Shown: positions 11,475 to 39,420, counted from the first letter of the stretch. The stretch is 64,000 nucleotides of DNA from an uncultured Bacillota bacterium (GCA_947650795.1 CANSWR010000001.1:272-64271); one strand, 5' to 3'. Translations and numbers: made by a program. The notes: a model not told the origin generated them from the letters alone.

Positions 11475-11506
11475 AGCAGTAAAATTTCAAACTGCTCCTT
11501 TTTATA
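11475..11506 (+). terminator. Bidirectional stem-loop terminator between convergent genes
   Basis: Stem AGCAGT / ACTGCT with a 10-nt loop; T-rich on both sides. Confidence 0.4.
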
Positions 11507-15008: not shown

Positions 15009-15084
15009 TTGTTCACCACCTAAATTAATTATACTATAAAACAGCAAAAAAGCAAACTATTATTTCGGTATGGCAAAAATTAAC

Positions 15085-16475: not shown

Positions 16476-16549
16476 TGGCAGGGGTATCAGGATTCGAACC
16501 CGAACGGAGCGTTTTGGAGACGCTAATACTACCATTATATTATACCCCT
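16476..16549 (-). tRNA. tRNA-Trp (anticodon CCA)
   Basis: Reverse complement folds as a cloverleaf. Acceptor AGGGGTA/TACCCCT. D arm ATAT-AATGGTA-GTAT. Anticodon stem AGCGT/ACGCT with loop CTCCAAA. T arm TCGGG-TTCGAAT-CCTGA. Discriminator G, encoded CCA. Confidence 0.8.
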
Positions 16550-19871: not shown

Positions 19872-21554
19872 TTATCCTTTCTTCTTTTTTCGTGGTTTTA
19901 CTTCTTTTCTACGAGAAAACGGTGGTTTCTCATATACAAATTCTGTCTTAGGAATAACATTAAACTTATATGTTATTTCTATTTTTCTATCATTATCTAT
20001 GATTATTTTTTCTATTAACATATCATATATTTCTTTATTTGATTTTTTTAAATCTAATAGTTCCTTTATCTTTTTTGTGTAATCTGGAATAACATTTGGT
20101 TTATTTTTAATTTGATATTTTTCTATCTGCTTTTGTTGAATAAATTCATTAATTTTTTTTAGCTTTTCATCACATTCTTTTGAAAGCTCTTTATACATTT
20201 CAGCAGATATAATATCGTTGCATCTATCTTCATAGAGAATGGATAATTTTTTTGTTATCTTGTTTTTTTCTGTTTCATATTGAGTTATTACTTTATCAAT
20301 TTCATTAGTATTTTTATTGATTCTTTTAGCTACTTCATCATTTAACTTCTTAATATTTAATTTTTTTATATAAATATTAATATCATTATTTATTTTTTCA
20401 ATCAGTTGTTTTTCTAAATGCTCATAAGGGAAATAATGAGTTCCGCATCTTTGTCTGACAGGATCTCTAGAATATCTATTACAATTAACACTCCAAACAT
20501 CCGTTTTTTTATGATATTGAACAGATAATCTATTCCCACATTCTTTACAAAAAAGCATTCCTTCAAACATTCTTATTTCTCTATCTAATTTAGCTTTGCA
20601 TATTCTTGTATGACTTTTTTTAATATTTATACAATATTCAAAAGTTTCTTTATCTACTAATGCCTCATGTGTGTCCTCAACAACTAACCAAAGTCTTTTA
20701 TCTAGTGTTACTTTTTTCTTTGACTTATAATTAACCTTTGCTTGGGTATGCTGTATCATATCTCCTGTATAAATCCTATTATCTAATATTTTCCTTACAG
20801 TAGATATATTCCACTTAGTTGCATCAATTAATCTTGATGAATATGCTGTTCCTTTATATGCACTAGGTGTTGGCACTCCTTCATCATTTAATCTAGTTGC
20901 TATTTCAGAAGGACCTATTCCGTCAACTCTCCACTTAAATATTTTTTTTACTATTGGAGCTGTTTCAGGATTAGGAATGAGATGTCCTTTATCATCAGGA
21001 TCTCTCATATATCCATAACTTGGTAAACTACCAACAAATTTTCCCTTTTGCCTTTTTTCATTTAAAACATTTCTTATTTTTATTGAATTTTGTTTACTAT
21101 AATAATCATTACATGCAATTATGAAAGTTGATGAATCATTACTTGCCTGATTTTTAAAACTGTCATAAGATTCTAATATTGAAATAAATCTAATTTGATT
21201 TTCAGGAAAAAATGTTTCAATATAATATCCTGTCATAACATGATCTCTACCTAGTCTAGATAAATCTTTTACAACAACACAATTTATTTTCTTATTTTTT
21301 ATATCTTCCATCATTTTTTGGAAACCAGGTCTGTCAAAATCAGTTCCAGAAAAACCATCATCAACATATTCATTTACCAAATTAAAATTATGATTTTTAA
21401 CATAATCTCTTAATAATTCTTTTTGATTAGCAACACTTTCACTATCAGATTCATATTTTTTGTCTTTGTCTCTATCTTCCTGAGATAATCTTATATATAT
21501 CCCTACATTAAATTCAACATCAGTTAAGTAATTATTATTCATCTTTACCTCCAT
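19872..21554 (-). CDS. Large serine recombinase (resolvase/invertase N-terminal catalytic domain + recombinase domain + zinc ribbon + coiled coil)
   Basis: Catalytic Ser motif GIYIRLSQEDRD. DDGFSGTDFDRPGFQKMM and LSRLGRD motifs. Zn-ribbon CKECGN...CNRYSRDPVRQRCGTHY. 560 aa. Confidence 0.85.
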   Translation of the reverse strand: MEVKMNNNYLTDVEFNVGIYIRLSQEDRDKDKKYESDSESVANQKELLRDYVKNHNFNLVNEYVDDGFSGTDFDRPGFQKMMEDIKNKKINCVVVKDLSRLGRDHVMTGYYIETFFPENQIRFISILESYDSFKNQASNDSSTFIIACNDYYSKQNSIKIRNVLNEKRQKGKFVGSLPSYGYMRDPDDKGHLIPNPETAPIVKKIFKWRVDGIGPSEIATRLNDEGVPTPSAYKGTAYSSRLIDATKWNISTVRKILDNRIYTGDMIQHTQAKVNYKSKKKVTLDKRLWLVVEDTHEALVDKETFEYCINIKKSHTRICKAKLDREIRMFEGMLFCKECGNRLSVQYHKKTDVWSVNCNRYSRDPVRQRCGTHYFPYEHLEKQLIEKINNDINIYIKKLNIKKLNDEVAKRINKNTNEIDKVITQYETEKNKITKKLSILYEDRCNDIISAEMYKELSKECDEKLKKINEFIQQKQIEKYQIKNKPNVIPDYTKKIKELLDLKKSNKEIYDMLIEKIIIDNDRKIEITYKFNVIPKTEFVYEKPPFSRRKEVKPRKKKKG

Positions 21555-23445: not shown

Positions 23446-24153
23446 TTATTTTACATATTTTAATATACCTTTATTTTTATAATATGAATCTATTAACATT
23501 TCATAATGTATTTTCATTTCATTTATTACATGATAATACACTTCTAAAGGATTTTTATCTTTATTTTTTCTTTGAAATTTTTTAAGATTTAAATGAAAAT
23601 TTTGAAATAAATATAAAGTAGAAAAATTATTAATGTTAGTCCATAAAAGACTTTTTAAAAATTTCATTATAGATTCTAAATCATCATTATTATCAAGATC
23701 TATACTTTGTAAATTTTTTATAAATGGTTTAAATAAGACCCTATCATCTATAAAAAGAATTGTTTCATAAAAATTATTAACTATTGCTTTGTCCATACTA
23801 TTAATAAAATATTGCATATTGTTATTATCTCCCCAATATTTCTTACATAATAGAAATTCTGGAACTTGATTCTCAAGAATAAATTCCAACATTAAATCTT
23901 TATGACATATTGTAGGAAATTTTGAATCAAAATAATAAATAAAATTATTTAGCATATCAATGAATTGTTCATTTCCTGTTAGGTAACCTTTTTTGACTAA
24001 AGAAGTTATAATGGTAGGTGTTTTTTCATCCGTAATTAGTTCTATTGCTTTATCTAATATATTTTTATTAATTAATTGATATATTCTTCCACCATTATCC
24101 GATTTTTTTAATGCTAATTTCTTTAATTGTTCCTTTCTTACATTATTCTTCAT
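23446..24153 (-). CDS. Hypothetical protein
   Basis: 235-aa ORF, divergent from the XRE regulator. Confidence 0.35.
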   Translation of the reverse strand: MKNNVRKEQLKKLALKKSDNGGRIYQLINKNILDKAIELITDEKTPTIITSLVKKGYLTGNEQFIDMLNNFIYYFDSKFPTICHKDLMLEFILENQVPEFLLCKKYWGDNNNMQYFINSMDKAIVNNFYETILFIDDRVLFKPFIKNLQSIDLDNNDDLESIMKFLKSLLWTNINNFSTLYLFQNFHLNLKKFQRKNKDKNPLEVYYHVINEMKIHYEMLIDSYYKNKGILKYVK

Positions 24154-24243
24154 TTAAATCACCTGTTGAATATCATTATAACACAGTTTTACCAAATGAC
24201 CCATAGTTTTGCGAATATTATTCGTTTTAATGGGAAAATTATA

Positions 24244-24678
24244 ATGGTGAAAGATATGAATGACAACAATTTAAAATTTTGTAGAGAAGAACTGGAAATG
24301 ACACAATCAGAACTTGGTCTTGTCTTTGGAGTTACTGGATCAACTGTTGCCGGTTGGGAAAATTCACATGATACTATGCCTCTTTCTAAATTAATAAAGT
24401 TCTCTAATTTATACCATTATTCACTTGATTATGTAACAGGATTATCTAGGGAAAATAATTACTACAAGATTGATAAATTAGATAAAAAGAAAATAGGTTG
24501 TAAATTAAAAGAAATAAGAAATAATTTAGGATTAACACAACAAGAGATTGCTGATGAGTGCATGATATCTCAAACAACATATAGTAATTATGAAACAGGA
24601 CAATATCTAGTTAGTTCGTTAGTTTTATATACAATATGTGTTAAACATAATTTATCATTTTATGACATATTAAAATAA
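24244..24678 (+). CDS. Tandem XRE-family HTH regulator (two HTH_3 domains)
   Basis: Two HTH signatures: MTQSELGLVFGVTGSTVAGWENS and LTQQEIADECMISQTTYSNYETGQ. Likely start at MVKDMNDNN or MNDNN (GGTGAAAG RBS); the track ORF starts earlier, at 24127. It is the only plus-strand gene in the ICE, divergent from 23446-24153 and convergent on the defence operon. Confidence 0.6.
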   Translation: MVKDMNDNNLKFCREELEMTQSELGLVFGVTGSTVAGWENSHDTMPLSKLIKFSNLYHYSLDYVTGLSRENNYYKIDKLDKKKIGCKLKEIRNNLGLTQQEIADECMISQTTYSNYETGQYLVSSLVLYTICVKHNLSFYDILK

Positions 24679-24696
24679 AGGCTCACCCTTTATTTT

Positions 24697-25242
24697 TTAA
24701 TTGTTCATACAAAGATTTAATATATCTTCTTCTGAGATTTCTTTATTGTATCTATCATTATATTCTGATATAAAATTGTAAATATTATTAATATAATCAT
24801 CTATTGTAGTAGCATCCTTTAATAATTTTTCTTCTAATATTTCAATACCACCTAAAACATATTGTTCAAATATTTTATTGCATTCCTCTTTTTCTTCGGT
24901 TCCAGCATTATATCTAAATGCATTATCTAATCTATCCTCAATAGATAATTTATCCTTATTGTGAAGTAACATAATTAATTCATAATTAAAATTAAGTGTT
25001 TTAGATTCGCGGTTCATTTGATCAAAATTAATCTTTTTAACATTATCAGTTGCAGGTCCTTCATCATCTCTCTTGGACATTCTTCCATATAAATAACCGA
25101 CAATAGGAGCAATTATAAGAACATCAATATTTCTTTCAAATAATTTAAATTTTGTATCACTATCTATTTCAGTAGTTAACTGTGTAACAATATTAGCGTG
25201 TTTACCTTTAAAATTATAGTCACGTTCAAACATATTACTCAC
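24697..25242 (-). CDS. Hypothetical 181-aa protein, translationally coupled partner of the SMC-like ATPase (last gene of the cargo operon)
   Basis: Start overlaps the stop of 25235-27256 by 8 nt. No recognised motif. Confidence 0.4.
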   Translation of the reverse strand: MSNMFERDYNFKGKHANIVTQLTTEIDSDTKFKLFERNIDVLIIAPIVGYLYGRMSKRDDEGPATDNVKKINFDQMNRESKTLNFNYELIMLLHNKDKLSIEDRLDNAFRYNAGTEEKEECNKIFEQYVLGGIEILEEKLLKDATTIDDYINNIYNFISEYNDRYNKEISEEDILNLCMNN

Positions 25243-27256
25243 CTACCTTTGTAATTTTACTATCAACAGGATATTCCTTATCTCTTAATGATACTTCATA
25301 TTCTATACCAATCTTAGATTGCATTTCTTTCTTTGCAATATTACCATCAGAATCTTTTATAAAGATTATTACTTGCCTGGCAATATTTGGAATAACCTCA
25401 CATATATTTTTTATTCTTCTTTGGTCGAAAGATGAAAGTGGAGCATCCATAACTAATGGATATTCATCTGTAACAATACTAGATTCTTCTGTCTTATCAT
25501 TTACTTTTTGTTTAGCTAAATTAATAACTCCAACAATGAATGCAAATATAATTGAATAACTCTTTGCAGTATTTGCATCAATATTTGCACTATTATCTTG
25601 AAGTTCATTTACATATGAAGTTATTTTATACTTTTCATCAATATTAATCGTCATACCACCAGCATATATTTGTTTAAATAAATCGTTAATTTGATCTTCA
25701 AGTTTTTCTCTTGTTTTAGCCTCTTCAAAATCATATGTTTGTTTAAACTTATTATAAGCTGCTCTTGCATATAAGATTTGTTCTTCAATTGATTTATTCT
25801 TTTCAATCTTCATTTGCAATCTACTTATTTCAGCTTCGGCATCTTGTTTTTCTTTTTCTAACACACCATTTTGAATTTCTAATCTCTTAAGTTGATCTCT
25901 TAAATCTTTAACTGTATTTTCCATATCATTTTGTCTACTCTTAAGATCTTTAACTTTAGTATTAGATGATTTTAGAATTGATTTATCTATCTCACCTATT
26001 TGATGCTCGATTTCTTCAATTTTATTACTACATCCTCTAATTGTACTTAAAAGAGATTCGATATTAGAAAAATAATTATCACTACTTTTAACTAGCATTC
26101 CAGCCCTATCTTGGAATTGACTTATTGCACTACCTAATGATTGAGGAGGAATATATTTTAATAATTGCATTAATTCTTGAACAGCATCAGATGTAGGATC
26201 AGACAAATCGCATCCACAAATACATTTTTTTCTATTCATTAAGTATTTAATAGTTTCATCTCTAACAGATGGTATACCTTTATCTACATTATCAGTATTT
26301 TTTAATTCTATTAATGCATCATTAATTAACTTTCTAGACATAAAACTAAATGTCTGTTTAGTGAAATTACTCATTAATGTTGTAATTGTGTTATTTTTAT
26401 GATTAATCTCCATTTGAAGATTTGCATTTAATTGATTTAATTCTTGTTGTAGCTTTTCCGCTTCAGCAAATGATAAAATCTCTGCTTTAGCTTTTTCTAT
26501 TTCTTTATCATAATATGATAATTCATCTTCCATTTTATCAATTTGTTCAGAATTCTTATCAATTTTATCGGAATTTGTATATATTATTTCTCTTAATCTT
26601 CTAGTTTCACTATCTCCAGCTGCATCTAATTGTGCATTATATTTACCTATAACACTATTTTTTACATTAGGATTTAAATGTTCAATAGCTTTAGTTAAAG
26701 CAGTTAAACCAAGTATATTTTGAACAGCTGTTTTAAACTCTTCACTTTTACCGCTATTAACTTCTCCAGCCATTTTTTCAATTCTTTCACCATCAAAGAA
26801 GAAATATTTTGATAATGATTCTGGTAAAATATTAGCTATTGTAGACAAGTTCTTGATTGGATTAACTATTACTGTTTGTCCATCTGGTTGTTTTTGATAT
26901 ATTTCTAAAACTGGATTTTCAGGTTTAACATTTCCACTTGTATCTTTTTTATATGTTTGTTTACGTATTATAGTATAATCAACTTCATTGTGTTCTAATT
27001 CTAATTTTGCGAATACATTTTGTTCAGTTCCACCCATCATCTCTTTTTCAACAACACTATTTAACACAGATTTATTTTTAAATCCATCTGTTTTAGAATA
27101 TAAAACCCATTGAAAAGCTTGAGCTAATGTAGTTTTTCCTGCTCCATTTTCGGCCATAACAAGTGTTATATTTTTTTCCTTATCAGTAGAGAATTCAATA
27201 ACATGTTCACCTTTAAATGGTCTAAAATTAGTTAAAGTTAATTTTTTTAGCAACAT
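25235..27256 (-). CDS. DndD-like SMC/RecF-type ABC ATPase with long coiled coil
   Basis: N-terminal Walker A LVMAENGAGKTTLAQAF. A ~300-aa coiled-coil middle. C-terminal Walker B/D-loop YPLVMDAPLSSFDQRR, matching the DndD/PtuA-like pattern (hhhhD-x-P-L-x-x-x-D). Confidence 0.7.
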   Translation of the reverse strand: MLLKKLTLTNFRPFKGEHVIEFSTDKEKNITLVMAENGAGKTTLAQAFQWVLYSKTDGFKNKSVLNSVVEKEMMGGTEQNVFAKLELEHNEVDYTIIRKQTYKKDTSGNVKPENPVLEIYQKQPDGQTVIVNPIKNLSTIANILPESLSKYFFFDGERIEKMAGEVNSGKSEEFKTAVQNILGLTALTKAIEHLNPNVKNSVIGKYNAQLDAAGDSETRRLREIIYTNSDKIDKNSEQIDKMEDELSYYDKEIEKAKAEILSFAEAEKLQQELNQLNANLQMEINHKNNTITTLMSNFTKQTFSFMSRKLINDALIELKNTDNVDKGIPSVRDETIKYLMNRKKCICGCDLSDPTSDAVQELMQLLKYIPPQSLGSAISQFQDRAGMLVKSSDNYFSNIESLLSTIRGCSNKIEEIEHQIGEIDKSILKSSNTKVKDLKSRQNDMENTVKDLRDQLKRLEIQNGVLEKEKQDAEAEISRLQMKIEKNKSIEEQILYARAAYNKFKQTYDFEEAKTREKLEDQINDLFKQIYAGGMTINIDEKYKITSYVNELQDNSANIDANTAKSYSIIFAFIVGVINLAKQKVNDKTEESSIVTDEYPLVMDAPLSSFDQRRIKNICEVIPNIARQVIIFIKDSDGNIAKKEMQSKIGIEYEVSLRDKEYPVDSKITKVGE

Positions 27257-27453
27257 TTTATTTCCTCCTCTATGATTTTTTCAATTTTCTTCTTCATATC
27301 TTCATCATTTAATTCTCTAGTTTTAACATTATTGTTTTCTAAAGTTATAATGGTTCTTACAATTCTAGTTAACTTTTGGTTATCAATCATACTTTGTTGT
27401 TCAAAATTTTGATTTGATGATTGAGTTTCAGTTTTAACTTCTTCATTATTCAT
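27247..27453 (-). CDS. Small 68-aa protein overlapping both neighbours (operon linker protein)
   Basis: Overlaps the upstream stop by 8 nt and the downstream start by 10 nt. Acidic, ends in CC. Confidence 0.3.
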   Translation of the reverse strand: MNNEEVKTETQSSNQNFEQQSMIDNQKLTRIVRTIITLENNNVKTRELNDEDMKKKIEKIIEEEIKCC

Positions 27454-29641
27454 AATAGTTTACCTCCATATCCATTTCTTCTTCATCGTTATCATCCTCA
27501 TTTAATCTATAAGTATCAGTTAGCTCATATATTAACTTATCAGATTCCATTTTACTCATAGCTAATCTATTAAATTCAATCATACGATTAACTTCATTTC
27601 TTACCATTGACTTTTCACATTTTATTTCGTCATATGTTAAATTAATAGCTTCATCTAAAGGTCTTGGTAAAGTTATGAAATCATATATTATTGCAAATTC
27701 TTTTCCTGGATATTTTCTTAATACTCTACCTCGCCTTTGAATATATTCTTTTGGATTAGTTGTACTTGCTAAAATAAATGCCGTTTTTATAGCAGGAATA
27801 TTAACACCTTCATCTAAACATTTTATTGCAATTAACGCTTGTAAATAATCTCCATCAAAGAATTTTCTTCTTAATAAATCTCTAGTATAACTATCTTCTT
27901 TTGATGTAAATTGTGCAACATTCATTTTTAATTCTTTTCCAAGTAATTCTGTTATAGCATCTATTTGTCTCATATCTTCGCCATTTTCATCTTGCTCTGC
28001 AATTTTAGTAGCACCACAATAAACCAAGATATGATTATCATCTTTATAAGGTTTAATTTCTCTAGCAAGTGCTGATACTTTATTAAATGCGCCTGCAACT
28101 AATCTTGATCTCTTTTGAGCAATTATTTTACCTTTATCGGATAATTTAGTTTTGCCATTCTTTTTTAATATACATTTTGCAATTTCTTTTGATAAACTGT
28201 GATATTCATCTAATTCTTCATCGGTTAAATATACTACAATTGGGTGATATTGATATGGGGTTAAGAATTTTTCTCCATTTTTTCCTTTAATAGCATCTTC
28301 TAACGTAAACTCAATACATTTTTCACCAAAATAATCTAAAAGTGCTTGTGTTCCTTCTTCATCTCCATGACGTTCTAATGTTGCTGAAAGAGCTAATCTA
28401 TAATTAAATTTATCAGTTAGAGTCTTTTTTAAGTTTTCGGCACCAAAATTATGTGCTTCATCAACTACTAATAAAACATTTCCTCTTATATTATTAATCT
28501 GTGATTGAATATAATCTGTAGCAAAAGTACCGTTAGTACAAACAAAACAAAAGAAATTTCTTACACCTAGATTATAATCCATTATTGCCATTTTAATTCT
28601 TTGTTTAAAATCTTTTTGTTCAGAAGAACTGTGTCCAATAATTGGGTGGATATTAAAATTAATAATATCTTCTACCCATTGATTTACTAAATGCTGATAT
28701 GGGCAAACAATTACAACTGCCAATTTACCTTTTAAATCTTTATATAATCTCGTTATTGCTCCTAACCCAGTAAAAGTTTTACCTGTTCCTGTTGCCATAT
28801 CAAATATACCACTATAATTATTATGACTCCAATTTTCTATAGCTTCTTTTTGATAATCATGTAATGTAACTCCAGCAGGTATTTCTGGTGAATTAGTAAC
28901 AGTTTTTAATTTTTCTATTGTTAAATCTATATGTTTAGTACTAAATTCTTTTTGATCTATTTCCCAATCTATACTATCCTTTCTATAAGATAATAATTTA
29001 TTTTTTACAACTGTAGGAAAATCAAAAATCATAGCACTAGCATCATCATTTTTCCATAATTTGTTAAATGCATTCTCTTTCATTGAAACTCTTTCAGGAT
29101 CGCTCCATGAAGTAAAAACATCAACGATTTCATAATTATTAATAAATGCATTTTCAGATTCGTTCATAGAACCAGAGAAAGCAACTACATTTCCTTCAGT
29201 ATCATACATTAAACCAAGTTTCTCATGATACAAACCTAATTTCTCATTTTTTAATGAAAAAGCAATTTTTATATCCAATTTCTCTTGTGCTATTAAATTA
29301 GCTAATAAATTCAATCTCTCTTCTTCAAAATAATTTTGTGGTTCTGTTATATATTGCATTAGAGCTCGTTCTACAATATCTTCTCTTGCTTCATATCCTT
29401 TATTAATTGCTTCAATATCTTCTTCCGATAAATGTGGTGAGGCAATCAATTGGATTTTTCCATTGTTGTTAATTAAGTGTGTTATTCCATATGATATTTC
29501 TAATAAAGATGATGATGAGAAAAATCCAACACTTCTTTTATATAAATTTGATTCTTTTAATAAAGGAATATAGAAATCATTTACTATATTATCTCTAGGA
29601 GATCTATATTCTTGTTTTAAATTAACATCTAATAAACTCAT
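27446..29641 (-). CDS. PLD-family (HKD) nuclease domain fused to an SF2 DEAH-type helicase
   Basis: N-terminal HKD motif LGLYHEKLGLMYDTEGNVVAFSGSMNESENAF (H-x-K-x4-D...GSxN). Helicase motif I FDMATGTGKTFTG, motif II LLVVDEAHNFG, and C-terminal motif VI-like QRRGRVLRK. Confidence 0.7.
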   Translation of the reverse strand: MSLLDVNLKQEYRSPRDNIVNDFYIPLLKESNLYKRSVGFFSSSSLLEISYGITHLINNNGKIQLIASPHLSEEDIEAINKGYEAREDIVERALMQYITEPQNYFEEERLNLLANLIAQEKLDIKIAFSLKNEKLGLYHEKLGLMYDTEGNVVAFSGSMNESENAFINNYEIVDVFTSWSDPERVSMKENAFNKLWKNDDASAMIFDFPTVVKNKLLSYRKDSIDWEIDQKEFSTKHIDLTIEKLKTVTNSPEIPAGVTLHDYQKEAIENWSHNNYSGIFDMATGTGKTFTGLGAITRLYKDLKGKLAVVIVCPYQHLVNQWVEDIINFNIHPIIGHSSSEQKDFKQRIKMAIMDYNLGVRNFFCFVCTNGTFATDYIQSQINNIRGNVLLVVDEAHNFGAENLKKTLTDKFNYRLALSATLERHGDEEGTQALLDYFGEKCIEFTLEDAIKGKNGEKFLTPYQYHPIVVYLTDEELDEYHSLSKEIAKCILKKNGKTKLSDKGKIIAQKRSRLVAGAFNKVSALAREIKPYKDDNHILVYCGATKIAEQDENGEDMRQIDAITELLGKELKMNVAQFTSKEDSYTRDLLRRKFFDGDYLQALIAIKCLDEGVNIPAIKTAFILASTTNPKEYIQRRGRVLRKYPGKEFAIIYDFITLPRPLDEAINLTYDEIKCEKSMVRNEVNRMIEFNRLAMSKMESDKLIYELTDTYRLNEDDNDEEEMDMEVNYYE

Positions 29642-29653
29642 TTGTTCACCACC

Positions 29654-30781
29654 TTATAAAGATTCTAATGCATTAATTAATAAATCAATATCATTTTTTG
29701 TATTAAAGTAATTTAAACTAATTCTTACAGTACCATTATACTCCATAGAGCCAATAAAGTCATGTATTAACGGTGCACAATGATACCCAGTCCTTACGTA
29801 TATACTATATTCATCATCTAAAATAGATCCAACATCATCTGATGAATAATTATTTATTCCTATAGATACCATGCCAAATATACTCTCATATTTATCTGGT
29901 AAAAATAATTTAACTTTTTTTAATGTTTTTAATTTTTCAATTAAATAATCAGTCAACTCTTTTTCATGATTATAAATATCAACATTATTAAGCCAATCAA
30001 TACTTGCATCTAATCCACAAATAGCTACAATATTTGGGCTTCCAGCTTCATATCCATCAGGTATTGTATCTGGCATATTTGGGTTCATTGTGTCAGAACC
30101 AGTTCCACCAAAAAGACTTTGTTTCAATTTATCGCTTTTTAATTTAATATAACCAGCTATACCAAATGATGCATATAAAGATTTATGTCCAGCAAAAACT
30201 ATATAATTAATATCTTCACTATTCTTAATAGGAACAATTCCGTATCCCTGTGAAGCATCAAGTATATTTATAGAATTATATTTTTTTGTTAATTGAAATA
30301 TTTTATCATAAGGTAACACATATCCTGTAACATTACTTACTTGTGAAAGAAAAATAGCTGCCGGATTATGTATTGCAAACATATCACTAATTTTATCATA
30401 ATTAGGTTTCCAAGTTTGTTTATCAAAAGGAAGTGTTTCAATATTAATATGTATTCTTTTCTTTAATTCTTCCAATGGTCTAACTATTGAATTATGCTCA
30501 AAAGGTGAAATATAAACATAATCATTTTCTTTTAACTCTATTCCAAATATTAAATCATTCAATGCTACAGTTGCAGAATTTGTATAGATAACTTTTGCAT
30601 TTTTAATATTATTTAACTTTAGTATTTTATTTCTAACAGTCTCTTTTGCTTCAGATGCCTCTCTAGCACATTTATAGCTTCCTCTACCTGTATTAAATGC
30701 ATTTCTATTTGCTTTATCGAGTGCTATGTACACATTTTCAGGTTTGGGATATGTTGTTGCCGCATTATCTAAATATATCAT
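29654..30781 (-). CDS. Group II cysteine desulfurase (DndA/SspA-like sulfur donor for DNA phosphorothioation)
   Basis: Class-V aminotransferase fold. PLP-lysine motif FAGHKSL. Active-site Cys in RTGYHCAP (SufS/CsdA-type). Confidence 0.8.
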   Translation of the reverse strand: MIYLDNAATTYPKPENVYIALDKANRNAFNTGRGSYKCAREASEAKETVRNKILKLNNIKNAKVIYTNSATVALNDLIFGIELKENDYVYISPFEHNSIVRPLEELKKRIHINIETLPFDKQTWKPNYDKISDMFAIHNPAAIFLSQVSNVTGYVLPYDKIFQLTKKYNSINILDASQGYGIVPIKNSEDINYIVFAGHKSLYASFGIAGYIKLKSDKLKQSLFGGTGSDTMNPNMPDTIPDGYEAGSPNIVAICGLDASIDWLNNVDIYNHEKELTDYLIEKLKTLKKVKLFLPDKYESIFGMVSIGINNYSSDDVGSILDDEYSIYVRTGYHCAPLIHDFIGSMEYNGTVRISLNYFNTKNDIDLLINALESL

Positions 30782-33700: not shown

Positions 33701-34299
33701 AATCCCTGCTTTAAGTCTTTAAATGAACAATTATATTCAGATAAACATTTTTTAATTTCACTTATTACATCTTTATATTCATCTTCCCATTTTAAGATAA
33801 CTTTTAATGCAATATCAAAATAGGTATTTACTACTATAGATGAAAGTTTTTCTCTTTCTAATGACTCTGATAAAGCTAATAAGAATGCCTGATTTAAATC
33901 ACCATAATTACTATTAATGATAATTGGCATTAACTTAGTTTTTGTATCTCGTATATTTTTAATTAATTCATATGTATCGGAATCTACTTTTTTTATTTTA
34001 TTTAAAAAGATATCAATATCCTTTTTGTCTTCAGTATTATAGTTATTTAATAATGTGATAAGAACAAGTAATAAATGAGATTTACCTTTTCCATATGGGC
34101 CAATTAATGTAGTTGCTCTATTCTTAGAATTTAATACACTATTAAAATACTGGCCTAATAATTCACAACCATCTTTTGTGGGAATATACTCATTAATTTT
34201 TGATATGTTATTAATATCAAATTGCAAATTAACAGAGTATTGAAAATTCTCATTAACACTTATATAGTCTTTGTATTTCATACTATACACCTCATTCAA
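30790..34299 (-). CDS. Large P-loop ATPase of the DUF499-like class (SspC/BrxC-like)
   Basis: Walker A near the N-terminus: LIGPYGKGKSHLLLVL. 1169 aa, helical. Lies in the operon between the 281-aa gene and the desulfurase, as sspC does in sspABCD loci. No methyltransferase, PglZ or Lon nearby, so a BREX assignment is disfavoured. Confidence 0.5.
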   Translation of the reverse strand: MNEVYSMKYKDYISVNENFQYSVNLQFDINNISKINEYIPTKDGCELLGQYFNSVLNSKNRATTLIGPYGKGKSHLLLVLITLLNNYNTEDKKDIDIFLNKIKKVDSDTYELIKNIRDTKTKLMPIIINSNYGDLNQAFLLALSESLEREKLSSIVVNTYFDIALKVILKWEDEYKDVISEIKKCLSEYNCSFKDLKQGLKNYSEEYYAIFKNVYSCILHGQEFNPLVNSDIVKIYKDMAHEITEYGYSGMFIVFDEFSKFLEYVENSHMMKDLKLLQDFAELANRTGETEQIHLSCITHKTINQYAKNLTEDKLNAFKTVEGRFKELYFNRSIEQNYEIVSYALNKKDGYDEIFDTFYNKYLNTYDEIKSLTIFKNVDKIEDILYRGCYPLNPLTVYCLIQLSEKIAQNERTLFTFLTDDDQNGLKYFISNNSKGLFNVSKIYDYFRPLFKKETTDVIRNIWLKTENALAKCNELEEKDLIKSLSIIYMINETEILVPDDNTLRLSVDMASSKYEEIINKLIDKSIIKRRKITNELDFTNIYNRELSKEIKRLSENQFYDINIKDLINEVETKKYSLPRRYNEEFKITRFFDNVYMTEEELLSIKNLDILFENNYCDGVIINLIRNSRNVQSIIDHFIELKNDRVVLRIPKTIFPKNIVSLLREYKSIEYLINNKENDETNNELSLIKKETMEVLIEQLSIYFSSDNIQEYLYMNNKNKNVTNLSSYLSNICFDIYSKTPIVNNEMINKRELSAPIKKARDIVIDTVLNNDLSLIKSKTSAEATIYKAIVDKKNTSSIKEVLKIINSFVENSENQKLSFSELYKKLESKPYSIRKGIIPILLSIALYNYSDIIIIYFMNKEIDLDANNLIKINDNPEKYYILTEKGTTDKIKYLSNLMYIYDIPNLDNQRINLKKLVDGMRRWILSLPRILREYSNDYNYLNINDKYIIIKNELLRPDINNNEFIYQKLIEIFGTNNYEEIKELIKDMKQTFDSFMNSYCEYVIKETKEIFNKNHKGSLNSLLKDWLIDNELESSNMIFDIKTRELIEYVKELTTHDENDIIEKISKIVTGFYIEDWQPNEINNFKEELEKIINNINELDQNSVDSSNKITLISGDEKIEKYLSNSDELSALGNTMKNNIEEIINEYGDSLTEQEKISVLIDIMKKYM

Positions 34300-35137
34300 A
34301 ATGTTCTTTCATAATCTCATCAATTGACATTTTTGTCGTAAAATAAATCATATTCAATCCAGCAGTTCTATTAATAACGATTAAATCTTGTTTTTTCATT
34401 TCATCTAAATATTCATTTATTAGATTTTTATCTAAATTTAATAGTTTAGCTGGGCTATTATCTAATTTTATTAAGTCATCAATACTTAAATAATCTTTAT
34501 CCTCAGATAAAATAACCATCAAATAATAAACAATCAAATAATTTAAATTTCTAAAATCCGGTTTTACTCTTTCATAGGCATTTATATCCACTTTTTTAAT
34601 TAGATTTAATTCAGATAAAGGACAAATAAAATTATTTTCTGGATTATCGATTTTTTCATCAATAGAATATGTTTTTATAATCATATTAACTTCATCTTGT
34701 AAAATATTCTCACTATATTCTAATTTATTATTATTTAAAATTTGTGATATTTGTTCAAAAATATCTCTTTTTGAAAACACTTTCATTGTACATTTATTAA
34801 AAAACAAGTTATAAATATATGAATCTTCAATATTTAAAATCATTTTAATATGTATTAACCACCATGAAAAATTATCTTCTAAATATGGATCATATTTATC
34901 AATTAATTCACCAAACTTAGATAATGTGATAGAACGATTATTTTCTTCAATAAGACAAGTTGCAGACATCCAATATTTTAAGGATTTAACCATATTTGTA
35001 CCAATGCCTAATATATCTGTTGCATCAGCAGAAGAAAATGCTTTAGAATCTTCTTTTATTGTTCTAATCCCTTTTGCTAACCATCCCTCTCTAATTGAAA
35101 AACTTTCATGTCTTTTCATTTTTACTTTATTAATCAT
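34292..35137 (-). CDS. 281-aa protein in the position and size of SspB (DUF4007-like candidate DNA nicking/targeting subunit)
   Basis: Overlaps the downstream ATPase gene by 8 nt and follows the PAPS-reductase gene by 4 nt. Assigned from context and size only. Confidence 0.3.
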   Translation of the reverse strand: MINKVKMKRHESFSIREGWLAKGIRTIKEDSKAFSSADATDILGIGTNMVKSLKYWMSATCLIEENNRSITLSKFGELIDKYDPYLEDNFSWWLIHIKMILNIEDSYIYNLFFNKCTMKVFSKRDIFEQISQILNNNKLEYSENILQDEVNMIIKTYSIDEKIDNPENNFICPLSELNLIKKVDINAYERVKPDFRNLNYLIVYYLMVILSEDKDYLSIDDLIKLDNSPAKLLNLDKNLINEYLDEMKKQDLIVINRTAGLNMIYFTTKMSIDEIMKEHFE

Positions 35138-35141
35138 AGTT

Positions 35142-36893
35142 TTACTCCTTATCTTGTTTAGTTCTTAATACCTTTTTCATATAGCATCCACCACTAAAAT
35201 GTTTAACACATTCTAAACATCCTATACACTTCTTTTCATTTATCGTATATGATATATCAAATTTTTCTCCATCTTGTTTATTATTATGTTTAATTGTAAT
35301 TGCATCATATTTGCAAACACTTTCACAAGCCATACATCCAATACATGTTTGAAATTTTGTAATTTGGTTTTTTATAAGCATTTCACGAATTTTAGGATTG
35401 CTAAATACTTTAGTTTCCTTTAAAACAGAAACCTTTAAAAGTTTTTGTCCTACTTTACCAGTTAATTTTAATATTGGCTCTTTCGTTCTTTTATCTAAGA
35501 TATATACTTCTCCTAATCTCTTATTTCCAATATTAAAATCAAGTAATCCAAATGGCTTGAACAATTCGTACAATGTGTCATTAATTGGTTTATTTAAATC
35601 AAAATTAAATGCATTTTCTTCTAATACACAAGGTTTAAAAGATAGTATTGCATTTTCACTATAATTTAATCCATTCCCACCTTGTCTGGCTTTCCATCCA
35701 CCAGAAGAAATATATTCTTTTGGATCTGGTTTGCCGATTTGTGCAGCAAAATCTAATAATATATCATGAAATTTAATATATTCATCTTCCATATATATAC
35801 TGGATAAATATTCAGACCAATAGGAATTATTTGGGCAACACCAGCATCCAACCCTTGAAAATCCTTTTCTATAGGCACTATTAAATGGTATTTTTCTTGT
35901 TAATATATATAGCCACACATCAAAATCCATCCAGTCAATAATTGGTGCTACTGTTTCTTGCTTAGTTATTTTTGCACCTTTACTCTCCCTATCATATTTA
36001 CTACGAGCAATTGATTCGTTTCTCCTTAATCCTTGAAAAGTTAAAATTTTAGTTTTATTTTTAAAAGTTGCATCTATTTTTCTAGTAATGGAGCCTGTTT
36101 TGAAAATAGTACAACACCATCTCATCATTCTACTTGGAGGGCCTATAACTTTGCATAATTCATTAAAATTCTGTTCTTTATTTTTCGCTACAAGTAAAGG
36201 TGTTGTAGGGTGTATTTTTTTGAATTCTTGTAAATAATCTCCTGTCTCAGGATATTCAAGAGTTGTATCTCCATAGATGTGTATTATCTTATCTGTTCCC
36301 AATGAATTCATTACCAAATCACTTGTTACCGTAGAATCTTTACCACCTGAAAAAGAAACAAACATTGAATCTACATTGTATTTTTTTGAAATGTTTTTTA
36401 TGTAATCATGTGCTTCAGTAACAATTGAGCTATATCTGACACTATTTGCTTCAATGAATTTTCTTATATATGATTCTTCATAAAATGACTCAACATATTT
36501 TTGATTTTCTTTTTCGTTTTCTTGAATTATTTTTTTAACATCTTTATAATTAATATTATTAACAATATTTTTTACAGAAAATTTTATTTTTTCACCATTT
36601 ACAAAATAATAATTACCAGAAGTATTCCATACTGACTTTCCCACATATTTAAAAGGTTCTTTTTCAATAGCCTCTAATAATAATCTTTCTTGAGGAAATA
36701 CAGGCCTTATATCTGTTCCTATATACTCGGATTTCTTTCCACATATAGAGCAAACATTGTCAAATAAAGGTATATTACAATGTTTGCAATAATATATTTC
36801 AGATTTATCAATATAAGTTCTATTATTGCATACAGGACAGGTACTTGATTCACATATTAAATTGTCACAGTTACTACATACATATTTAATCAC
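35142..36893 (-). CDS. PAPS-reductase/ATP-pyrophosphatase family protein (DndC/SspD-like) with N-terminal 4xCxxC zinc ribbons and C-terminal double [4Fe-4S] ferredoxin motif
   Basis: PP-loop FVSFSGGKDSTVTSDL. N-terminal CSNC...CPVC...CKHC...CSIC. C-terminal CIGCMACESVC and CIGCLECVKHFSGGC. Confidence 0.75.
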   Translation of the reverse strand: MIKYVCSNCDNLICESSTCPVCNNRTYIDKSEIYYCKHCNIPLFDNVCSICGKKSEYIGTDIRPVFPQERLLLEAIEKEPFKYVGKSVWNTSGNYYFVNGEKIKFSVKNIVNNINYKDVKKIIQENEKENQKYVESFYEESYIRKFIEANSVRYSSIVTEAHDYIKNISKKYNVDSMFVSFSGGKDSTVTSDLVMNSLGTDKIIHIYGDTTLEYPETGDYLQEFKKIHPTTPLLVAKNKEQNFNELCKVIGPPSRMMRWCCTIFKTGSITRKIDATFKNKTKILTFQGLRRNESIARSKYDRESKGAKITKQETVAPIIDWMDFDVWLYILTRKIPFNSAYRKGFSRVGCWCCPNNSYWSEYLSSIYMEDEYIKFHDILLDFAAQIGKPDPKEYISSGGWKARQGGNGLNYSENAILSFKPCVLEENAFNFDLNKPINDTLYELFKPFGLLDFNIGNKRLGEVYILDKRTKEPILKLTGKVGQKLLKVSVLKETKVFSNPKIREMLIKNQITKFQTCIGCMACESVCKYDAITIKHNNKQDGEKFDISYTINEKKCIGCLECVKHFSGGCYMKKVLRTKQDKE

Positions 36894-37017
36894 ACAATAT
36901 CCCTCCTATACATTTGCATCCTCTTAAATATTATATCATATTTTTTACTGGAGAAAAATATTTTTATTAAATGTTTCTCCAGTTTTTATTTTGCAAAAAA
37001 ATTAGTAGCAAAAGCTA

Positions 37018-39420
37018 CTAATCAATATATTGTAATATATCAAAATCATTAATATCCTCATCATAATAGTCTTTACTCCTGTAAACACAGTCGATAGAAT
37101 TATCAAAATAATATTTTTTCTTATCTATAAATTCTTTTATATAGTATTCATATAAATCAATGTTATATTTTTCAAGAATATCTTTTTTTATTTCGCTAAC
37201 AAATATTTTGTTTTTCGTTACAAAACTATTTATGAATTTCTCTCTTGTTGCTTGTTCATCTGTTTTAATAAATACTACATTATTTTTTACAGTGAAAGTT
37301 TTAATATTAGGTATTGTAGATATAATAGTTTCATAAAAACAATCAGGAAAATTATGATTTTTTAAATTAGTTAAAAAATTATCTTTGTCTAAAGTGTATA
37401 GATTAAAATACTCATTTTCAGAAATAACTTTTTCTATTTCATTGATAAATTCTTTTATATTATCTTTACTTATTCCTAGCTCATTTAATCTTTTTATTGT
37501 AATATATTTTTCATTTTCAATTTCAAACAAATCAAGATTATATATAAATTTGTATAAATAACTAGAAAAAGTTGAACCTATTTTTTTCATTTCAGGTTTT
37601 ATTTCATAATAATCATTATTTAAAATTATATTACGTAAATATCCTTCTAAATTAGTAATAGAACTTTTCATTATATAGTTTCCTCTTAGCTTATATCCTA
37701 ATTTAGACATATTTAGATTATTAATCAGTTTAAAATCATTTACATCAAATAAATCTGTCAACAATTCTTTTATAGTTAAAATAGAATATATATCTTCTGT
37801 CAATCTTTCTTTTAATATATCCATTTGCTCTTGAGTAAATTCAGGACATTCACTTATAATTTGACCATTAGTAATATATTTACTAAAATTGTTTACTAAC
37901 AAAGCTCTAAAGGTATTATTTTTATGTCCATAATTTTGATATGCATAATCAACGAATTCATCTAAACTAATAGGAGACAATTCATGAATAAGATTATCAA
38001 TAAAGGCATTTTTATCATCACAATCAATAAATATATCAGGCATTCTTGAATAAATAATTTTACCATTATAATTTCCAATAAATTTTCTTAATAAATTATG
38101 TAATTCATATTCATTCTTTATATTTATATTTTTCATTAATAATTCATTGTTATTAAAGAAAAACTCAGCTGAATAATCACCAGATTCTACTTCTAACATT
38201 TTCTGAAGAGCTTTAACATCATCCTCATCAAGAGCATCGATATCATAATATCTATAATATCTACCTGCATCGCATAAAACATAATTAGATCTATTTAGTA
38301 TTGAATCAATATTTCTAAAATCCGCCTCACTTATAAGTTCAACATCTAAATTATTAGACTTTATTATCTCATTATATTCATTCATAATTTCAGAGTATTC
38401 CATTACTTTATCTGAACGTTTTAATATAGCATTTAATATATTAATCTTTTTAACAACTATGTTTTCACCTTTATATGAAATTAAATTATATTTCTTTTTT
38501 AATATAGCTAATTGTCTTTTATCCAAATTCCAACTATCTATTAATTCAGAAGGTTCAGTATCTCCCATTTTATATTTTTCACGTAAATAATAATATATAT
38601 ATTCATTTACATTAAAAAATTCACAAAATAGTTCACAATCGAAATTATAGGTTTCAAATATTTCTCTGTATTTTTCTTCTTCTCTAGTTGTAACAAATTT
38701 TTTAATTTCTTTCTGAATTATTTGTCTGATTCTTTCTCTTGTAATATTATATTCACTACCTATAGATTCCAAAGTTCTTCCAGTTAATTTTTTCAAAACC
38801 ATATCTTTATGATTTGAATCTTTTATTTTTTGTAATTCTTCTTTTAGTCTAGGTTTAACTAATGAATAATTAAGGTCCTCTTTTTTTAAAACTTTTTTAT
38901 TCAAAAAATCATTTAATAAAAATGATAAATCAGATGTATCATAATTACATTTTAAAACTTCTTCTTCAAGTTGTTCATAATAAAAAATATCATAACCATA
39001 TATATTTTTTATTAATGTTAATAATAAGTTCGATGTTAATTTTAATTTAATATGATTATTCATAATAAATTCATTATAACTCTTCATTATTTTTCTAAAT
39101 GTTGAATCGCTAATATAATCCTTGTGAGCAAGATTATCATTAATATCATCTATTGAAATATTATTTTTCACCAATAATCCAGTTATAGTTTTAGACAACC
39201 CAAAATACATCAAATCATAAATGGAAAATGTCTGTTCGTTATTAACCAATTCGTAAATTATATTCTTAATTTCTTCGGCTCTTTCACTTTTTGTACCAAG
39301 AACCTCATTTAAGCAATTTGGATTATTAATAATGCTATCACAAGTGATATTATTTTCTTTTAATCTTAATGCTGTATTATAAGGTATTCCAAAATCACAT
39401 AGTCTAAATATTGAATGCAT
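37018..39420 (-). CDS. 800-aa protein with sigma-70 region-4-type HTH and two RNAP alpha-CTD-like helix-hairpin-helix modules
   Basis: Sigma r4-like segment LTGRTLESIGSEYNITRERIRQIIQKEIKKF. N-terminal HhH-like repeats (LCDFGIPYNTALRLKENNITCDSI; IYDLMYFGLSKTITGLLVKNNISIDDI). Separated from the defence operon by 124 bp. Confidence 0.4.
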   Translation of the reverse strand: MHSIFRLCDFGIPYNTALRLKENNITCDSIINNPNCLNEVLGTKSERAEEIKNIIYELVNNEQTFSIYDLMYFGLSKTITGLLVKNNISIDDINDNLAHKDYISDSTFRKIMKSYNEFIMNNHIKLKLTSNLLLTLIKNIYGYDIFYYEQLEEEVLKCNYDTSDLSFLLNDFLNKKVLKKEDLNYSLVKPRLKEELQKIKDSNHKDMVLKKLTGRTLESIGSEYNITRERIRQIIQKEIKKFVTTREEEKYREIFETYNFDCELFCEFFNVNEYIYYYLREKYKMGDTEPSELIDSWNLDKRQLAILKKKYNLISYKGENIVVKKINILNAILKRSDKVMEYSEIMNEYNEIIKSNNLDVELISEADFRNIDSILNRSNYVLCDAGRYYRYYDIDALDEDDVKALQKMLEVESGDYSAEFFFNNNELLMKNINIKNEYELHNLLRKFIGNYNGKIIYSRMPDIFIDCDDKNAFIDNLIHELSPISLDEFVDYAYQNYGHKNNTFRALLVNNFSKYITNGQIISECPEFTQEQMDILKERLTEDIYSILTIKELLTDLFDVNDFKLINNLNMSKLGYKLRGNYIMKSSITNLEGYLRNIILNNDYYEIKPEMKKIGSTFSSYLYKFIYNLDLFEIENEKYITIKRLNELGISKDNIKEFINEIEKVISENEYFNLYTLDKDNFLTNLKNHNFPDCFYETIISTIPNIKTFTVKNNVVFIKTDEQATREKFINSFVTKNKIFVSEIKKDILEKYNIDLYEYYIKEFIDKKKYYFDNSIDCVYRSKDYYDEDINDFDILQYID

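Follow-up and report, generated by a model that had tools for sequence, protein, structure and literature searches.

Phosphorothioate-Based Defense and the PbeABCD Module

DNA phosphorothioate (PT) modification is written by modules of the Dnd and of the Ssp type, and in the literature searched Dnd is paired with DndFGH, PbeABCD or DndI, while Ssp is paired with SspE or SspFGH only. PbeABCD was named by Xiong (2019; PMC6459918) and re-annotated by Rakesh et al. (2024; PMC10853773) as the CxC ABC (ATP-binding cassette)-ATPase/DndE-anchored system. Its archetype is the DndCDEA-PbeABCD locus of Haloterrigena jeotgali / Natrinema thermotolerans A29, which encodes a protein with phospholipase D (PLD), ResIII and Helicase_C domains (PbeA), a protein of 66 amino acids (aa; PbeB), an AAA_23 coiled-coil ATPase (PbeC) and a protein of 152 aa (PbeD) (PMC6459918). 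Here we describe an operon in a stretch of 64,000 nucleotides (nt) from an uncultured Bacillota bacterium (GCA_947650795.1 CANSWR010000001.1:272-64271; hereafter the window, from whose first letter all positions are counted). Positions 24697-29641 of the window hold, with near certainty as to its identity, a complete and intact PbeABCD module, which forms the distal half of an eight-gene operon together with a writing module of the Ssp type, SspABCD.

In the archetype, the pbe genes are co-transcribed and lie directly downstream of the cysteine desulfurase gene of the PT-writing module, and all four of them are needed for a protection of approximately 10^4-fold (PMC6459918). The protection depends on the PT modification and not on the Dnd proteins, and in the absence of PT, pbeABCD has no toxicity and gives no protection (PMC6459918). 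In the same study, carried out before Ssp was known, 320 of 553 pbeAC were counted as "solitary", 58% being without dndCD. The linkages described for CxC-DndE systems are to DndD/DndE-centered PT modules and to cytosine methylases (with MTaX1), next to stand-alone modules, and in the text searched Ssp figures only as a separate system (PMC10853773).

Ssp systems differ from Dnd systems in that PT is placed on one strand, at asymmetric sites, and in that their reader SspB, a triple winged helix-turn-helix protein (PMC10853773), is unrelated to DndE. In characterized systems, sspBCD with IscS or SspA suffices for PT (PMC8092258; PMC12914056). BrxP of bacteriophage exclusion (BREX) systems is effectively an SspD-SspB fusion, and both BrxP/BrxC and gut sspBCD clusters make PT (PMC12914056). 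The effectors described in cis to Ssp are SspE, with DUF262 and DUF1524, and SspFGH, which consists of a Walker-A protein, an unknown protein and an FtsK-like translocase (PMC8092258). However, 84% of sspBCD clusters have no known partner, and further partners have been predicted (Wang et al., 2021; PMC8092258).

We consider it probable that the intact PbeABCD and the Ssp operon together form a PT-dependent defense cassette, which travels as cargo on an element resembling integrative and conjugative elements (ICEs) in a low-GC host of the gut Bacillota type, and that Pbe is functionally coupled to the Ssp module is likely. The Ssp-Pbe operon is a conserved recombination of two known modules and brings in no new protein type. 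The pairing of Ssp with Pbe was not found in the literature searched, which did not extend to Xiong 2020 (Nat Microbiol) and Krishnan 2020 (NAR), so that an earlier mention is possible.

An Eight-Gene Ssp-Pbe Operon

All genes of the operon lie on the minus strand of the window, which has a GC content of ~25%. In operon order, with the hairpins that delimit it, the features are:

37000-37023, minus strand: terminator-like hairpin between the upstream 800-aa gene and sspD, marking the upstream limit of the operon
35142-36893, minus strand: long sspD, 583 aa, with a Cys-rich N-terminus, a 3'-phosphoadenosine 5'-phosphosulfate (PAPS) reductase domain and a 4Fe-4S ferredoxin domain
34292-35137, minus strand: sspB (DUF4007), 281 aa
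30790-34299, minus strand: sspC, BrxC-like P-loop ATPase, 1169 aa as a mechanical open reading frame (ORF)
29654-30781, minus strand: sspA-like cysteine desulfurase (class-V aminotransferase), 375 aa, 12 nt upstream of pbeA
27446-29641, minus strand: pbeA, 731 aa
27247-27453, minus strand: pbeB, 68 aa
25235-27256, minus strand: pbeC, 673 aa
24697-25233, minus strand: pbeD, 178 aa from its ATG (181 aa as a mechanical ORF reaching to GTG 25242)
24672-24696, minus strand: A/U-rich 10-bp hairpin with U tract directly 3' of the pbeD stop codon, predicted fold -9.3 kcal/mol, z = -2.45

The eight tightly packed ORFs, sspD(long)-sspB-sspC-sspA-pbeA-pbeB-pbeC-pbeD, run from 36893 to 24697, and with mechanical ORF starts the distances between them are, in this order, +4, -8, +8, +12, -8, -10 and -8 nt. 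The true start of sspC is likely ATG 34281 (1163 aa), on which the gene callers agree. PbeD almost certainly starts at ATG 25233, 1 nt past the pbeC stop codon, and not at GTG 25242, because every homolog opens with MF(E/D) and the gene called on identical contigs encodes 178 aa. With these two corrections sspB/sspC and pbeC/pbeD are separated by gaps of 10 nt and 1 nt, respectively, rather than overlapping. Terminator-like hairpins occur only at the two ends, the downstream one being the probable operon terminator, and none is found in the 12-nt gap between sspA and pbeA. Given the short gaps and overlaps and the confinement of terminator-like hairpins to both ends, the eight genes look like one operon of 12.2 kb.

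An earlier note on this DNA had singled out the 731-aa and 673-aa genes as a candidate effector pair, the 731-aa gene being bracketed by reading frames that overlap with a 68-aa gene and the 673-aa gene. The overlaps are real (8 nt for pbeA/pbeB, 10 nt for pbeB/pbeC), the small genes are translationally coupled to the two large ones, and the two large genes do lie in what is likely the restriction half of a PT system, but as members of a four-gene module and not as a newly recruited pair. The related idea that a DndD-like ATPase had been recruited to a nuclease motor falls away, as the four genes are the already named PbeABCD, in which the ATPase always accompanies the HKD-helicase. The last gene, taken in the note to encode a coupled protein of 181 aa, does belong to the module, but its product is likely 178 aa long and it lies outside the interval that the note had delimited.

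The Components of the Pbe Module

PbeA combines an HKD (PLD-family) nuclease domain (aa ~10-220), a superfamily 2 (SF2) double-stranded DNA (dsDNA) translocase of the XPB/Rad25-like kind (aa ~255-660) and a C-terminal helical region. Its motifs, with the helicase motifs read from the translation, are:

29162-29227, minus strand: HKD motif, H139-E-K141, D147, G157-S-M-N160
28775-28795, minus strand: motif I (Walker A), ATGTGKT, aa 283-289 (MATGTGKT, aa 282-289)
28451-28462, minus strand: motif II, DEAH, aa 394-397
27716-27739, minus strand: motif VI, QRRGRVLR, aa 635-642

A SAT motif (helicase motif III) stands at aa 419-421, and the HKD spacing is HxK(x)5D as compared with the textbook (x)4. 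In an alignment of 47 relatives of 45-96% identity, extracted from the 53 genome loci described below, the nuclease residues H139, K141, G157, S158 and N160 are invariant, as are G285, G287, K288 and T289 of motif I, D394, E395 and H397 of motif II, S419-T421, and Q635-R639 of motif VI. PbeA matches the PADLOC PbeA profile with an E-value of 3.8e-249, and in Pfam it matches ResIII (6e-23), Helicase_C (5e-13) and DEAD. Its score against NCBIfam TIGR04095, "DNA phosphorothioation system restriction enzyme", is 514.2 bits, which is below the equivalog cut-off of 600 bits. The helicase core is of the XPB/Rad25 type, with sequence matches in the Protein Data Bank (PDB) at 1e-20, and an AlphaFold2 (AF2) model of moderate confidence (predicted local distance difference test, pLDDT, 75.5) aligns best with CSB and Rad25. 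A comparison with the PDB found no solved close relative of either PbeA or PbeC. The HKD motif and helicase motifs I, II and VI that the earlier note had read in the 731-aa protein are thus all present, with catalytic residues invariant among the relatives, and its description as an HKD/PLD nuclease fused to an SF2 translocase is borne out by the PADLOC PbeA, ResIII and Helicase_C matches. The likeness to type III Res or DISARM proteins that the note had suggested extends to the SF2 helicase fold; the operon has neither a Mod methylase nor DrmA/DrmB.

PbeB, of 68 aa, corresponds in size and position to the small protein of the archetype. No profile in Pfam, PADLOC or NCBIfam matches it, which is expected because the protein evolves fast. 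An ORF of 49-70 aa occupies this position in each of 45 related loci, filling the space from pbeA to pbeC. The N-terminus is variable, while the C-terminal ~45 residues are conserved across phyla around a common core, ..KL..h+.+Ih..E..N.KT+...M...I++hI.EE, and often end in C-C or C-Y.

PbeC matches the PADLOC PbeC profile at 1.5e-108, as against 1.6e-36 for the DndD profile. In Pfam, AAA_23 and SMC_N match its N-terminus and coiled-coil families match aa 229-298 and 410-519, on either side of a central CxC motif. Two of its motifs are:

27131-27148, minus strand: Walker A, N37-G-A-G40-K41-T42, with N37, G40, K41 and T42 invariant in 46 relatives
26216-26224, minus strand: CxC zinc hook at the protein midpoint, C345-I-C347 in KKCICGCD, with both Cys invariant in 46 relatives

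The CxC zinc hook is the defining trait of the "CxC ABC-ATPase" clade, which has been equated with PbeC (Rakesh, Aravind & Krishnan, 2024; PMC10853773). The window protein and a Dnd-linked PbeC are 26% identical over the full length, KCICG included. Judged from these sequence features, PbeC is an ABC ATPase of the CxC clade, a sister of DndD, with two predicted coiled-coil arms and a zinc hook. Two other assignments, which together made up the "DndD-like SMC ATPase" of the earlier note, were considered and rejected. PbeC is related to DndD as a coiled-coil ABC ATPase but is not DndD proper, since its score against NCBIfam TIGR03185 (DndD) is 113.1 bits against a cut-off of 245.85, the CxC hook is present and the locus has no DndC or DndE partner of the Dnd type. 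Nor is it an SMC protein: it has 673 aa, SMC_N reaches 31 bits against a cut-off of 40 and over aa 3-104 only, the CxC hook replaces the hinge, and TIGR02168/02169 (SMC) give 32-35 bits against cut-offs of 567-729.

PbeD contains two ribbon-helix-helix (RHH) units (aa ~9-93) followed by a C-terminal helical extension (aa ~100-178), and its AF2 model (pLDDT 88, predicted template modeling score 0.82) shows two strand-helix-helix units and the extension. A profile search against the PDB yielded no more than a match at the level of chance (E 0.1), and the relationship to DndE emerged from fold comparison. On its modeled fold, PbeD is a predicted DndE cognate with two tandem RHH units. Its homologs carry the newer Pfam family PF27807 (DNA_S_mod_dnd_assoc_4), and NCBIfam TIGR04062, "DNA phosphorothioation-associated protein 4", matches PbeD with 22.8 bits (E 8e-5), below its cut-off of 74.25 bits. 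As PbeA and PbeD both fall below the NCBI equivalog cut-offs, their relatives are named only "DEAD/DEAH box helicase" and "hypothetical protein". A convergent gene for a 183-aa protein with two XRE-type helix-turn-helix (HTH) domains (24127-24678, plus strand) ends 19 nt short of the pbeD stop codon; it is also present on an identical metagenome contig and could regulate the cassette or the ICE.

The Ssp Partner Module

SspB, SspC, an SspD with PAPS reductase domain and an SspA desulfurase are all clustered upstream of pbeA, with SspD being atypical. SspA matches Pfam Aminotran_5 (2.6e-63) and almost equally PADLOC SspA (9e-28) and DndA (9e-27), SspC matches PADLOC SspC (2.5e-104), and SspB matches Pfam DUF4007 (3.3e-74) and PADLOC SspB (1.9e-52). 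The long SspD has Pfam matches to PAPS_reduct (4.6e-33) and Fer4, and an N-terminal Cys-rich segment of the CxxC type read from the translation. In PADLOC it matches BrxP best (2.3e-84, over profile positions 21-517 of 779), followed by SspD (9.5e-12) and DndC (2.5e-11). From these profile matches, the long SspD is in effect a BrxP split from its DUF4007 part, the latter being the adjacent sspB. The operon proteins gave no match to SspE, any methyltransferase or DrmA/DrmB, and DndC/D/E appeared as cross-hits only; PglZ and BrxL had no match among the nine proteins, from the operon and its flanks, that were scanned.

Comparison With Known Systems

The structural traits of PbeABCD, namely the PbeA fusion, the small PbeB gene, the CxC hook of PbeC and the DndE fold of PbeD, are all found in the window, and the four genes share order, sizes and domains with the H. 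jeotgali / N. thermotolerans A29 locus, including the position directly downstream of a cysteine desulfurase gene. The link to DndCDEA is not. Where the partner of the archetype is DndC/D/E, that of the window is SspB (DUF4007), SspC and a BrxP-like SspD, with SspA, and the window proteins are distant from those of Dnd-linked bacterial Pbe modules (PbeA ~34%, PbeC 26% identity). The CxC-DndE systems of Rakesh et al. likewise share with the window the HKD endoDNase-SF2 fusion, the small protein, the CxC ATPase and the two-RHH DndE cognate, whereas their PbeB is described as mostly disordered and fast-evolving and that of the window is conserved over its C-terminal part (PMC10853773). The remark in the earlier note that a DndD-like ATPase beside SspC is unusual had some substance, insofar as Pbe with Ssp was not found described in the literature searched.

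SspABCD-SspE and SspABCD-SspFGH also pair an Ssp-type writer in cis with an effector module, which in the window is Pbe. Assignment of the window effector to SspFGH was rejected, as SspF, SspG and SspH are different types of protein (PMC8092258). BREX type 4 (BrxP-BrxC-PglZ-BrxL) resembles the writing half, BrxP being the best match to SspD and SspC a homolog of BrxC, but the BrxP parts are split in the window, the operon lacks matches to PglZ and BrxL and its effector half is Pbe, so that this assignment was rejected as well. The same applies to type III restriction-modification and DISARM, with which the operon has only the SF2 helicase fold in common, no methyltransferase and no DrmA/DrmB match having been found. 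SauUSI (PLD with SF2), the type ISP enzymes LlaGI/LlaBIII and type III Res (EcoP15I) bring target-recognition or methylase domains or subunits of their own, whereas PbeA has no such domain and depends on a separate pair of ABC ATPase and DndE-like protein, and on a small protein.

Linkage of Ssp and Pbe Across Genomes

When PbeA was searched against one genome for each GTDB species, 53 loci (45-96% identity) were recovered, and these were then probed by tblastn with the window proteins. One locus (L009), in which the contig is cut inside pbeA, is uninformative. Ssp-type genes adjoin pbeA in all of the 52 informative loci, whose hosts belong to Bacillota, Bacteroidota, Alphaproteobacteria, Treponema, Cloacimonadota and Gastranaerophilales. 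Three layouts recur, namely sspD(long)-B-C-A-pbeA as in the window, sspB-C-D(long)-A-pbeA, and sspB-C-D(short, canonical)-pbeA, and in L020 pbeA-D come first and are followed by sspB-C-D. Five loci (L015, L020, L039, L050, and L052) gave no tblastn match to the long SspD or to SspA. A different modifier in these was considered and rejected, as L015, L020 and L050 carry a short canonical SspD (PADLOC SspD 3.8e-136 in L015, weaker in L050 and L020) and L039 and L052 share the layout of L015. When a genuine DndB/C/D/E set was searched by tblastn against all loci, DndE had no matches, DndD gave cross-hits on pbeC only, and DndC gave only weak matches, which fell on SspD genes. DndB-like (DGQHR/ParB-type) genes flank three of the Ssp-Pbe cassettes (L025:1030-2250, L027:7191-7637, and L036:15530-15988), and a DGQHR gene also follows the Dnd-linked pbeABCD on a Pontibrevibacter plasmid.

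Within each module, protein identities co-vary closely across loci (PbeC-PbeD r = 0.96; SspB-SspC r = 0.97). Between modules, PbeA-SspC reaches r = 0.82 overall (Mantel 0/999), but this is driven by the close clade and the Spearman coefficient drops to 0.09 among pairs below 60% PbeA identity, hence no co-evolution between the modules is claimed. The Ssp and Pbe halves have thus been reshuffled repeatedly over deep time, always with a partner of the Ssp type.

Other contexts are seen on annotated plasmids, where the relatives of PbeA are more distant (32-40% identity). The Pontibrevibacter plasmid carries dndBCDE and a desulfurase followed by pbeABCD, a Haloprofundus plasmid carries pbeABCD with a methyltransferase, and plasmids of L. 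plantarum and Pseudanabaena carry solitary Pbe modules. A Sphingomonadaceae plasmid (L062; CP099618.1 103460-125956), however, harbors a canonical sspA-B-C-D(short)-pbeA-B-C-D operon, in which PbeA is 32% identical to that of the window, so that the Ssp-Pbe pairing extends beyond the clade sampled by the genome scan. Its genes are annotated generically, as "DUF4007 family protein," "hypothetical protein," "PAPS reductase family protein," "DEAD/DEAH box helicase" and "AAA family ATPase."

A megablast of the 12.2-kb operon against plasmids found no near-identical DNA. No PbeA relative was found in viral contigs either, hence the family is not phage-borne in that collection. The exact PbeA sequence occurs on nine metagenome contigs, and the nearest genome loci are in gut metagenome-assembled genomes (MAGs) of Clostridia and Bacilli. 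The closest genome match of all (L001, CAZHBQ010000127.1; PbeA 96%, PbeC 94%) is a 3.7-kb contig in a MAG labeled "Methanobacteriaceae archaeon." As the other close relatives are all in MAGs of Clostridia or Bacilli, the contig is probably a piece of the mobile element that was binned wrongly, rather than archaeal DNA.

Proposed Mechanism and Alternative Explanations

By analogy with the archetype and from the predicted folds, we infer the following course of events for Ssp-linked Pbe. SspABCD would write PT marks on host DNA, as its homology to characterized Ssp and BREX type 4 proteins suggests. A dimer of the zinc-hook ATPase PbeC, together with PbeD, a putative DNA binder with a DndE fold and a double RHH, would load on DNA and read its PT status, a step suggested by the folds and by the model of Rakesh et al. 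On unmarked invading DNA, PbeC/PbeD would license PbeA, an XPB-like dsDNA translocase. The single HKD domain of PbeA would have to dimerize for an active site to form, and PbeA would translocate and then nick, cut or block, upon which replication would halt. The coupling of its gene and its universal presence suggest that PbeB may be a small, co-translated subunit, acting as a bridge between PbeA and PbeC or as their gate. As SspB is unrelated to PbeD, and as Pbe is also found with Dnd, with methylases or alone, the simplest reading is that Pbe is a plug-in effector, responding to the modification state rather than to a common recognition sequence. Of all the steps of this scheme, sensing of the modification itself would be the least certain.

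A wider reading, which we offer tentatively and hold to have somewhat less than an even chance, is that SspABCD-PbeABCD represents an undescribed, widespread third class of Ssp defense beside SspE and SspFGH. Pbe would then sense PT itself or the density of PT on one strand and serve as a universal plug-in for Dnd, Ssp and methylase writers, with a sigma-70-like protein (see below) perhaps as an additional component.

Several points weigh against reading the operon as a PT-dependent defense cassette that acts in this way. The archetype blocks viral DNA replication without detectable cleavage of viral DNA (PMC6459918), which, despite the HKD domain, leaves the nuclease step a putative one. The PLDc_2 match of PbeA (6e-6, 26.6 bits) lies just under the Pfam cut-off of 27 bits, and the AF2 model of PbeA has low confidence at residues 159-170 and 605-647, stretches that include catalytic motifs. 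On the side of recognition, a reader of the DndE fold would need to sense single-strand PT at sites defined by SspB. PT writing by a long, BrxP-like SspD with a separate SspB is presumed from homology, and the role of Ssp-linked Pbe modules in defense is likewise predicted. Finally, the 53 loci were recruited by peptide patterns from the window PbeA and are a sample of its clade, not of the whole Pbe family.

Among the alternatives, the one that fares best is that Pbe is an abortive-infection or suicide effector, in which PbeB restrains PbeA, PbeC and PbeD until PbeB is removed or modified by an enzyme of the phage, whereupon the HKD domain attacks the cell's own DNA, the Ssp marks serving otherwise or tuning the threshold. 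It was proposed as an alternative by Rakesh et al. (PMC10853773), and it would agree with a PbeB that is universal, small and fast-evolving at its N-terminus, with the many solitary Pbe modules (those of L. plantarum and Pseudanabaena plasmids; 320 of 553 in PMC6459918) and with the lack of viral DNA cleavage in the archetype (PMC6459918). However, PT-modified virus escapes the archetype and PT in the host is required (PMC6459918), which points to discrimination by modification. If the marks were irrelevant, it would be hard to see why Pbe is so strictly linked to Ssp genes in operons, in 52 of 52 loci, and the C-terminal two-thirds of PbeB are conserved and not disordered, which suits a structural subunit, so that we regard a suicide effector as unlikely.

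Less likely again is that the Ssp and Pbe halves are independent systems, co-located in a defense island or cargo region, with Pbe acting as a "solitary" module or on another signal. In the window, sspA and pbeA are 12 nt apart with no terminator between them, and the adjacency is found in 52 of 52 loci from at least six phyla, in three Ssp gene orders and in addition in the 32%-identical lineage. Defense genes do cluster (also PMC12914056), Pbe modules exist without modification genes, and the similarities of Pbe and Ssp proteins are uncorrelated at depth (Spearman 0.07-0.09), yet modules that depend on each other in function would be expected to show just this, a reassortment in which the type of partner never changes.

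A part for PbeC/PbeD in modification, as a DndD/DndE-like scanning pair that helps SspABCD place PT, comes nearer to the earlier note, which had DndD-like ATPases normally acting in modification, and draws on a sister relationship with DndD and DndE, both of them components of modification (PMC10853773). We consider it very improbable, as PbeC/PbeD always travel with PbeA/PbeB, even in loci without PAPS reductase or desulfurase, as sspBCD with IscS or SspA is enough for PT (PMC8092258; PMC12914056), and as in the archetype PT is made by DndCDEA alone while deletion of pbeC or pbeD abolishes protection (PMC6459918). Least credible of all is a DNA-repair pathway of a Rad50/SbcC-like ATPase and an XPB-like helicase, for which weak NCBIfam Rad50/SbcC/SMC matches of PbeC, PDB and NCBIfam XPB/Rad25 matches of the PbeA core and the RefSeq GO term "double-strand break repair" on PbeC homologs could be cited, but all matches are far below family cut-offs (Rad50 54 vs. 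700 bits; XPB 41 vs. 610), no Mre11/SbcD partner is present, the genes lie on a mobile element beside PT genes, and the Pbe profile matches are strong and specific to a family whose antiviral role has been shown (PMC6459918).

If the operon is a PT-dependent Ssp-Pbe cassette, its occurrence across gut Bacillota, Bacteroidota, Alphaproteobacteria and other phyla would give orphan sspBCD clusters an effector, and a third class of Ssp defense, if real, would account for part of the 84% of sspBCD clusters that are orphans. The Ssp-linked Pbe clades are missed by current annotation, in which they appear as "DEAD/DEAH box helicase," "AAA family ATPase" and "hypothetical protein." As the reader of the writer and that of the effector are unrelated here, the pairing offers a clean test of whether Pbe recognizes PT chemistry or sequence, and the location of the cassette on a conjugative element bears on gene flow and phage therapy in gut communities. 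As to what the four Pbe proteins are, nothing changes.

The Mobile Element and Neighboring Genes

The operon lies as cargo inside the ICE-like conjugative element. Features of the element, preceded in the list by a tRNA-Trp of the window, are:

16476-16549: tRNA-Trp
19872-21554, minus strand: large serine recombinase
39840-41951, minus strand: VirD4-type coupling protein
47707-50169, minus strand: VirB4-like ATPase
55213-57927, minus strand: SpaA/thioester-domain surface adhesin

Genes for sigma-70-like proteins recur beside Pbe cassettes and may encode an accessory component or a regulator. In the window, an 800-aa protein is encoded upstream of the operon (37018-39420, minus strand), in which only a region-4 HTH (aa 212-237) was recognized, and in seven close loci the cassette is preceded by a gene for a full-length homolog. 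A full sigma-70-family protein of ~355 aa (MzaA-like) is encoded directly after pbeD in about 11 others, the copy in L011 matching NCBIfam MzaA at 3e-37. Examples of sigma-70-like genes are L011:14932-16023, L015:15389-16450, L020:14866-15951, and L055:7948-11001. A Dnd-linked plasmid has a gene for a 1017-aa "sigma factor-like HTH" protein directly upstream of pbeA; homology of the 800-aa protein to it was considered and rejected, the similarity being confined to the ~30-aa region-4 HTH.

Other, conserved "ninth genes" directly follow pbeD on the same strand in further loci and belong to a ~330-aa family (10 loci) or a ~389-aa family (8 loci), and a second gene after pbeD, of ~309 aa, is present in 7 loci (examples are L024:14809-15810, L019:14935-16104, and L030:15876-16754). 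None of the ~330-, ~389-, and ~309-aa families has an NCBIfam match, and the window itself is without such a ninth gene. Outside the cassette, the minus strand of the window encodes a 1690-aa M60-like (enhancin) peptidase with fn3 and F5/8-type-C domains (5644-10716), a divergent chaperonin of the Cpn60/TCP-1 family (11502-13055) and a radical-SAM protein with helix-hairpin-helix motifs (13791-15047).

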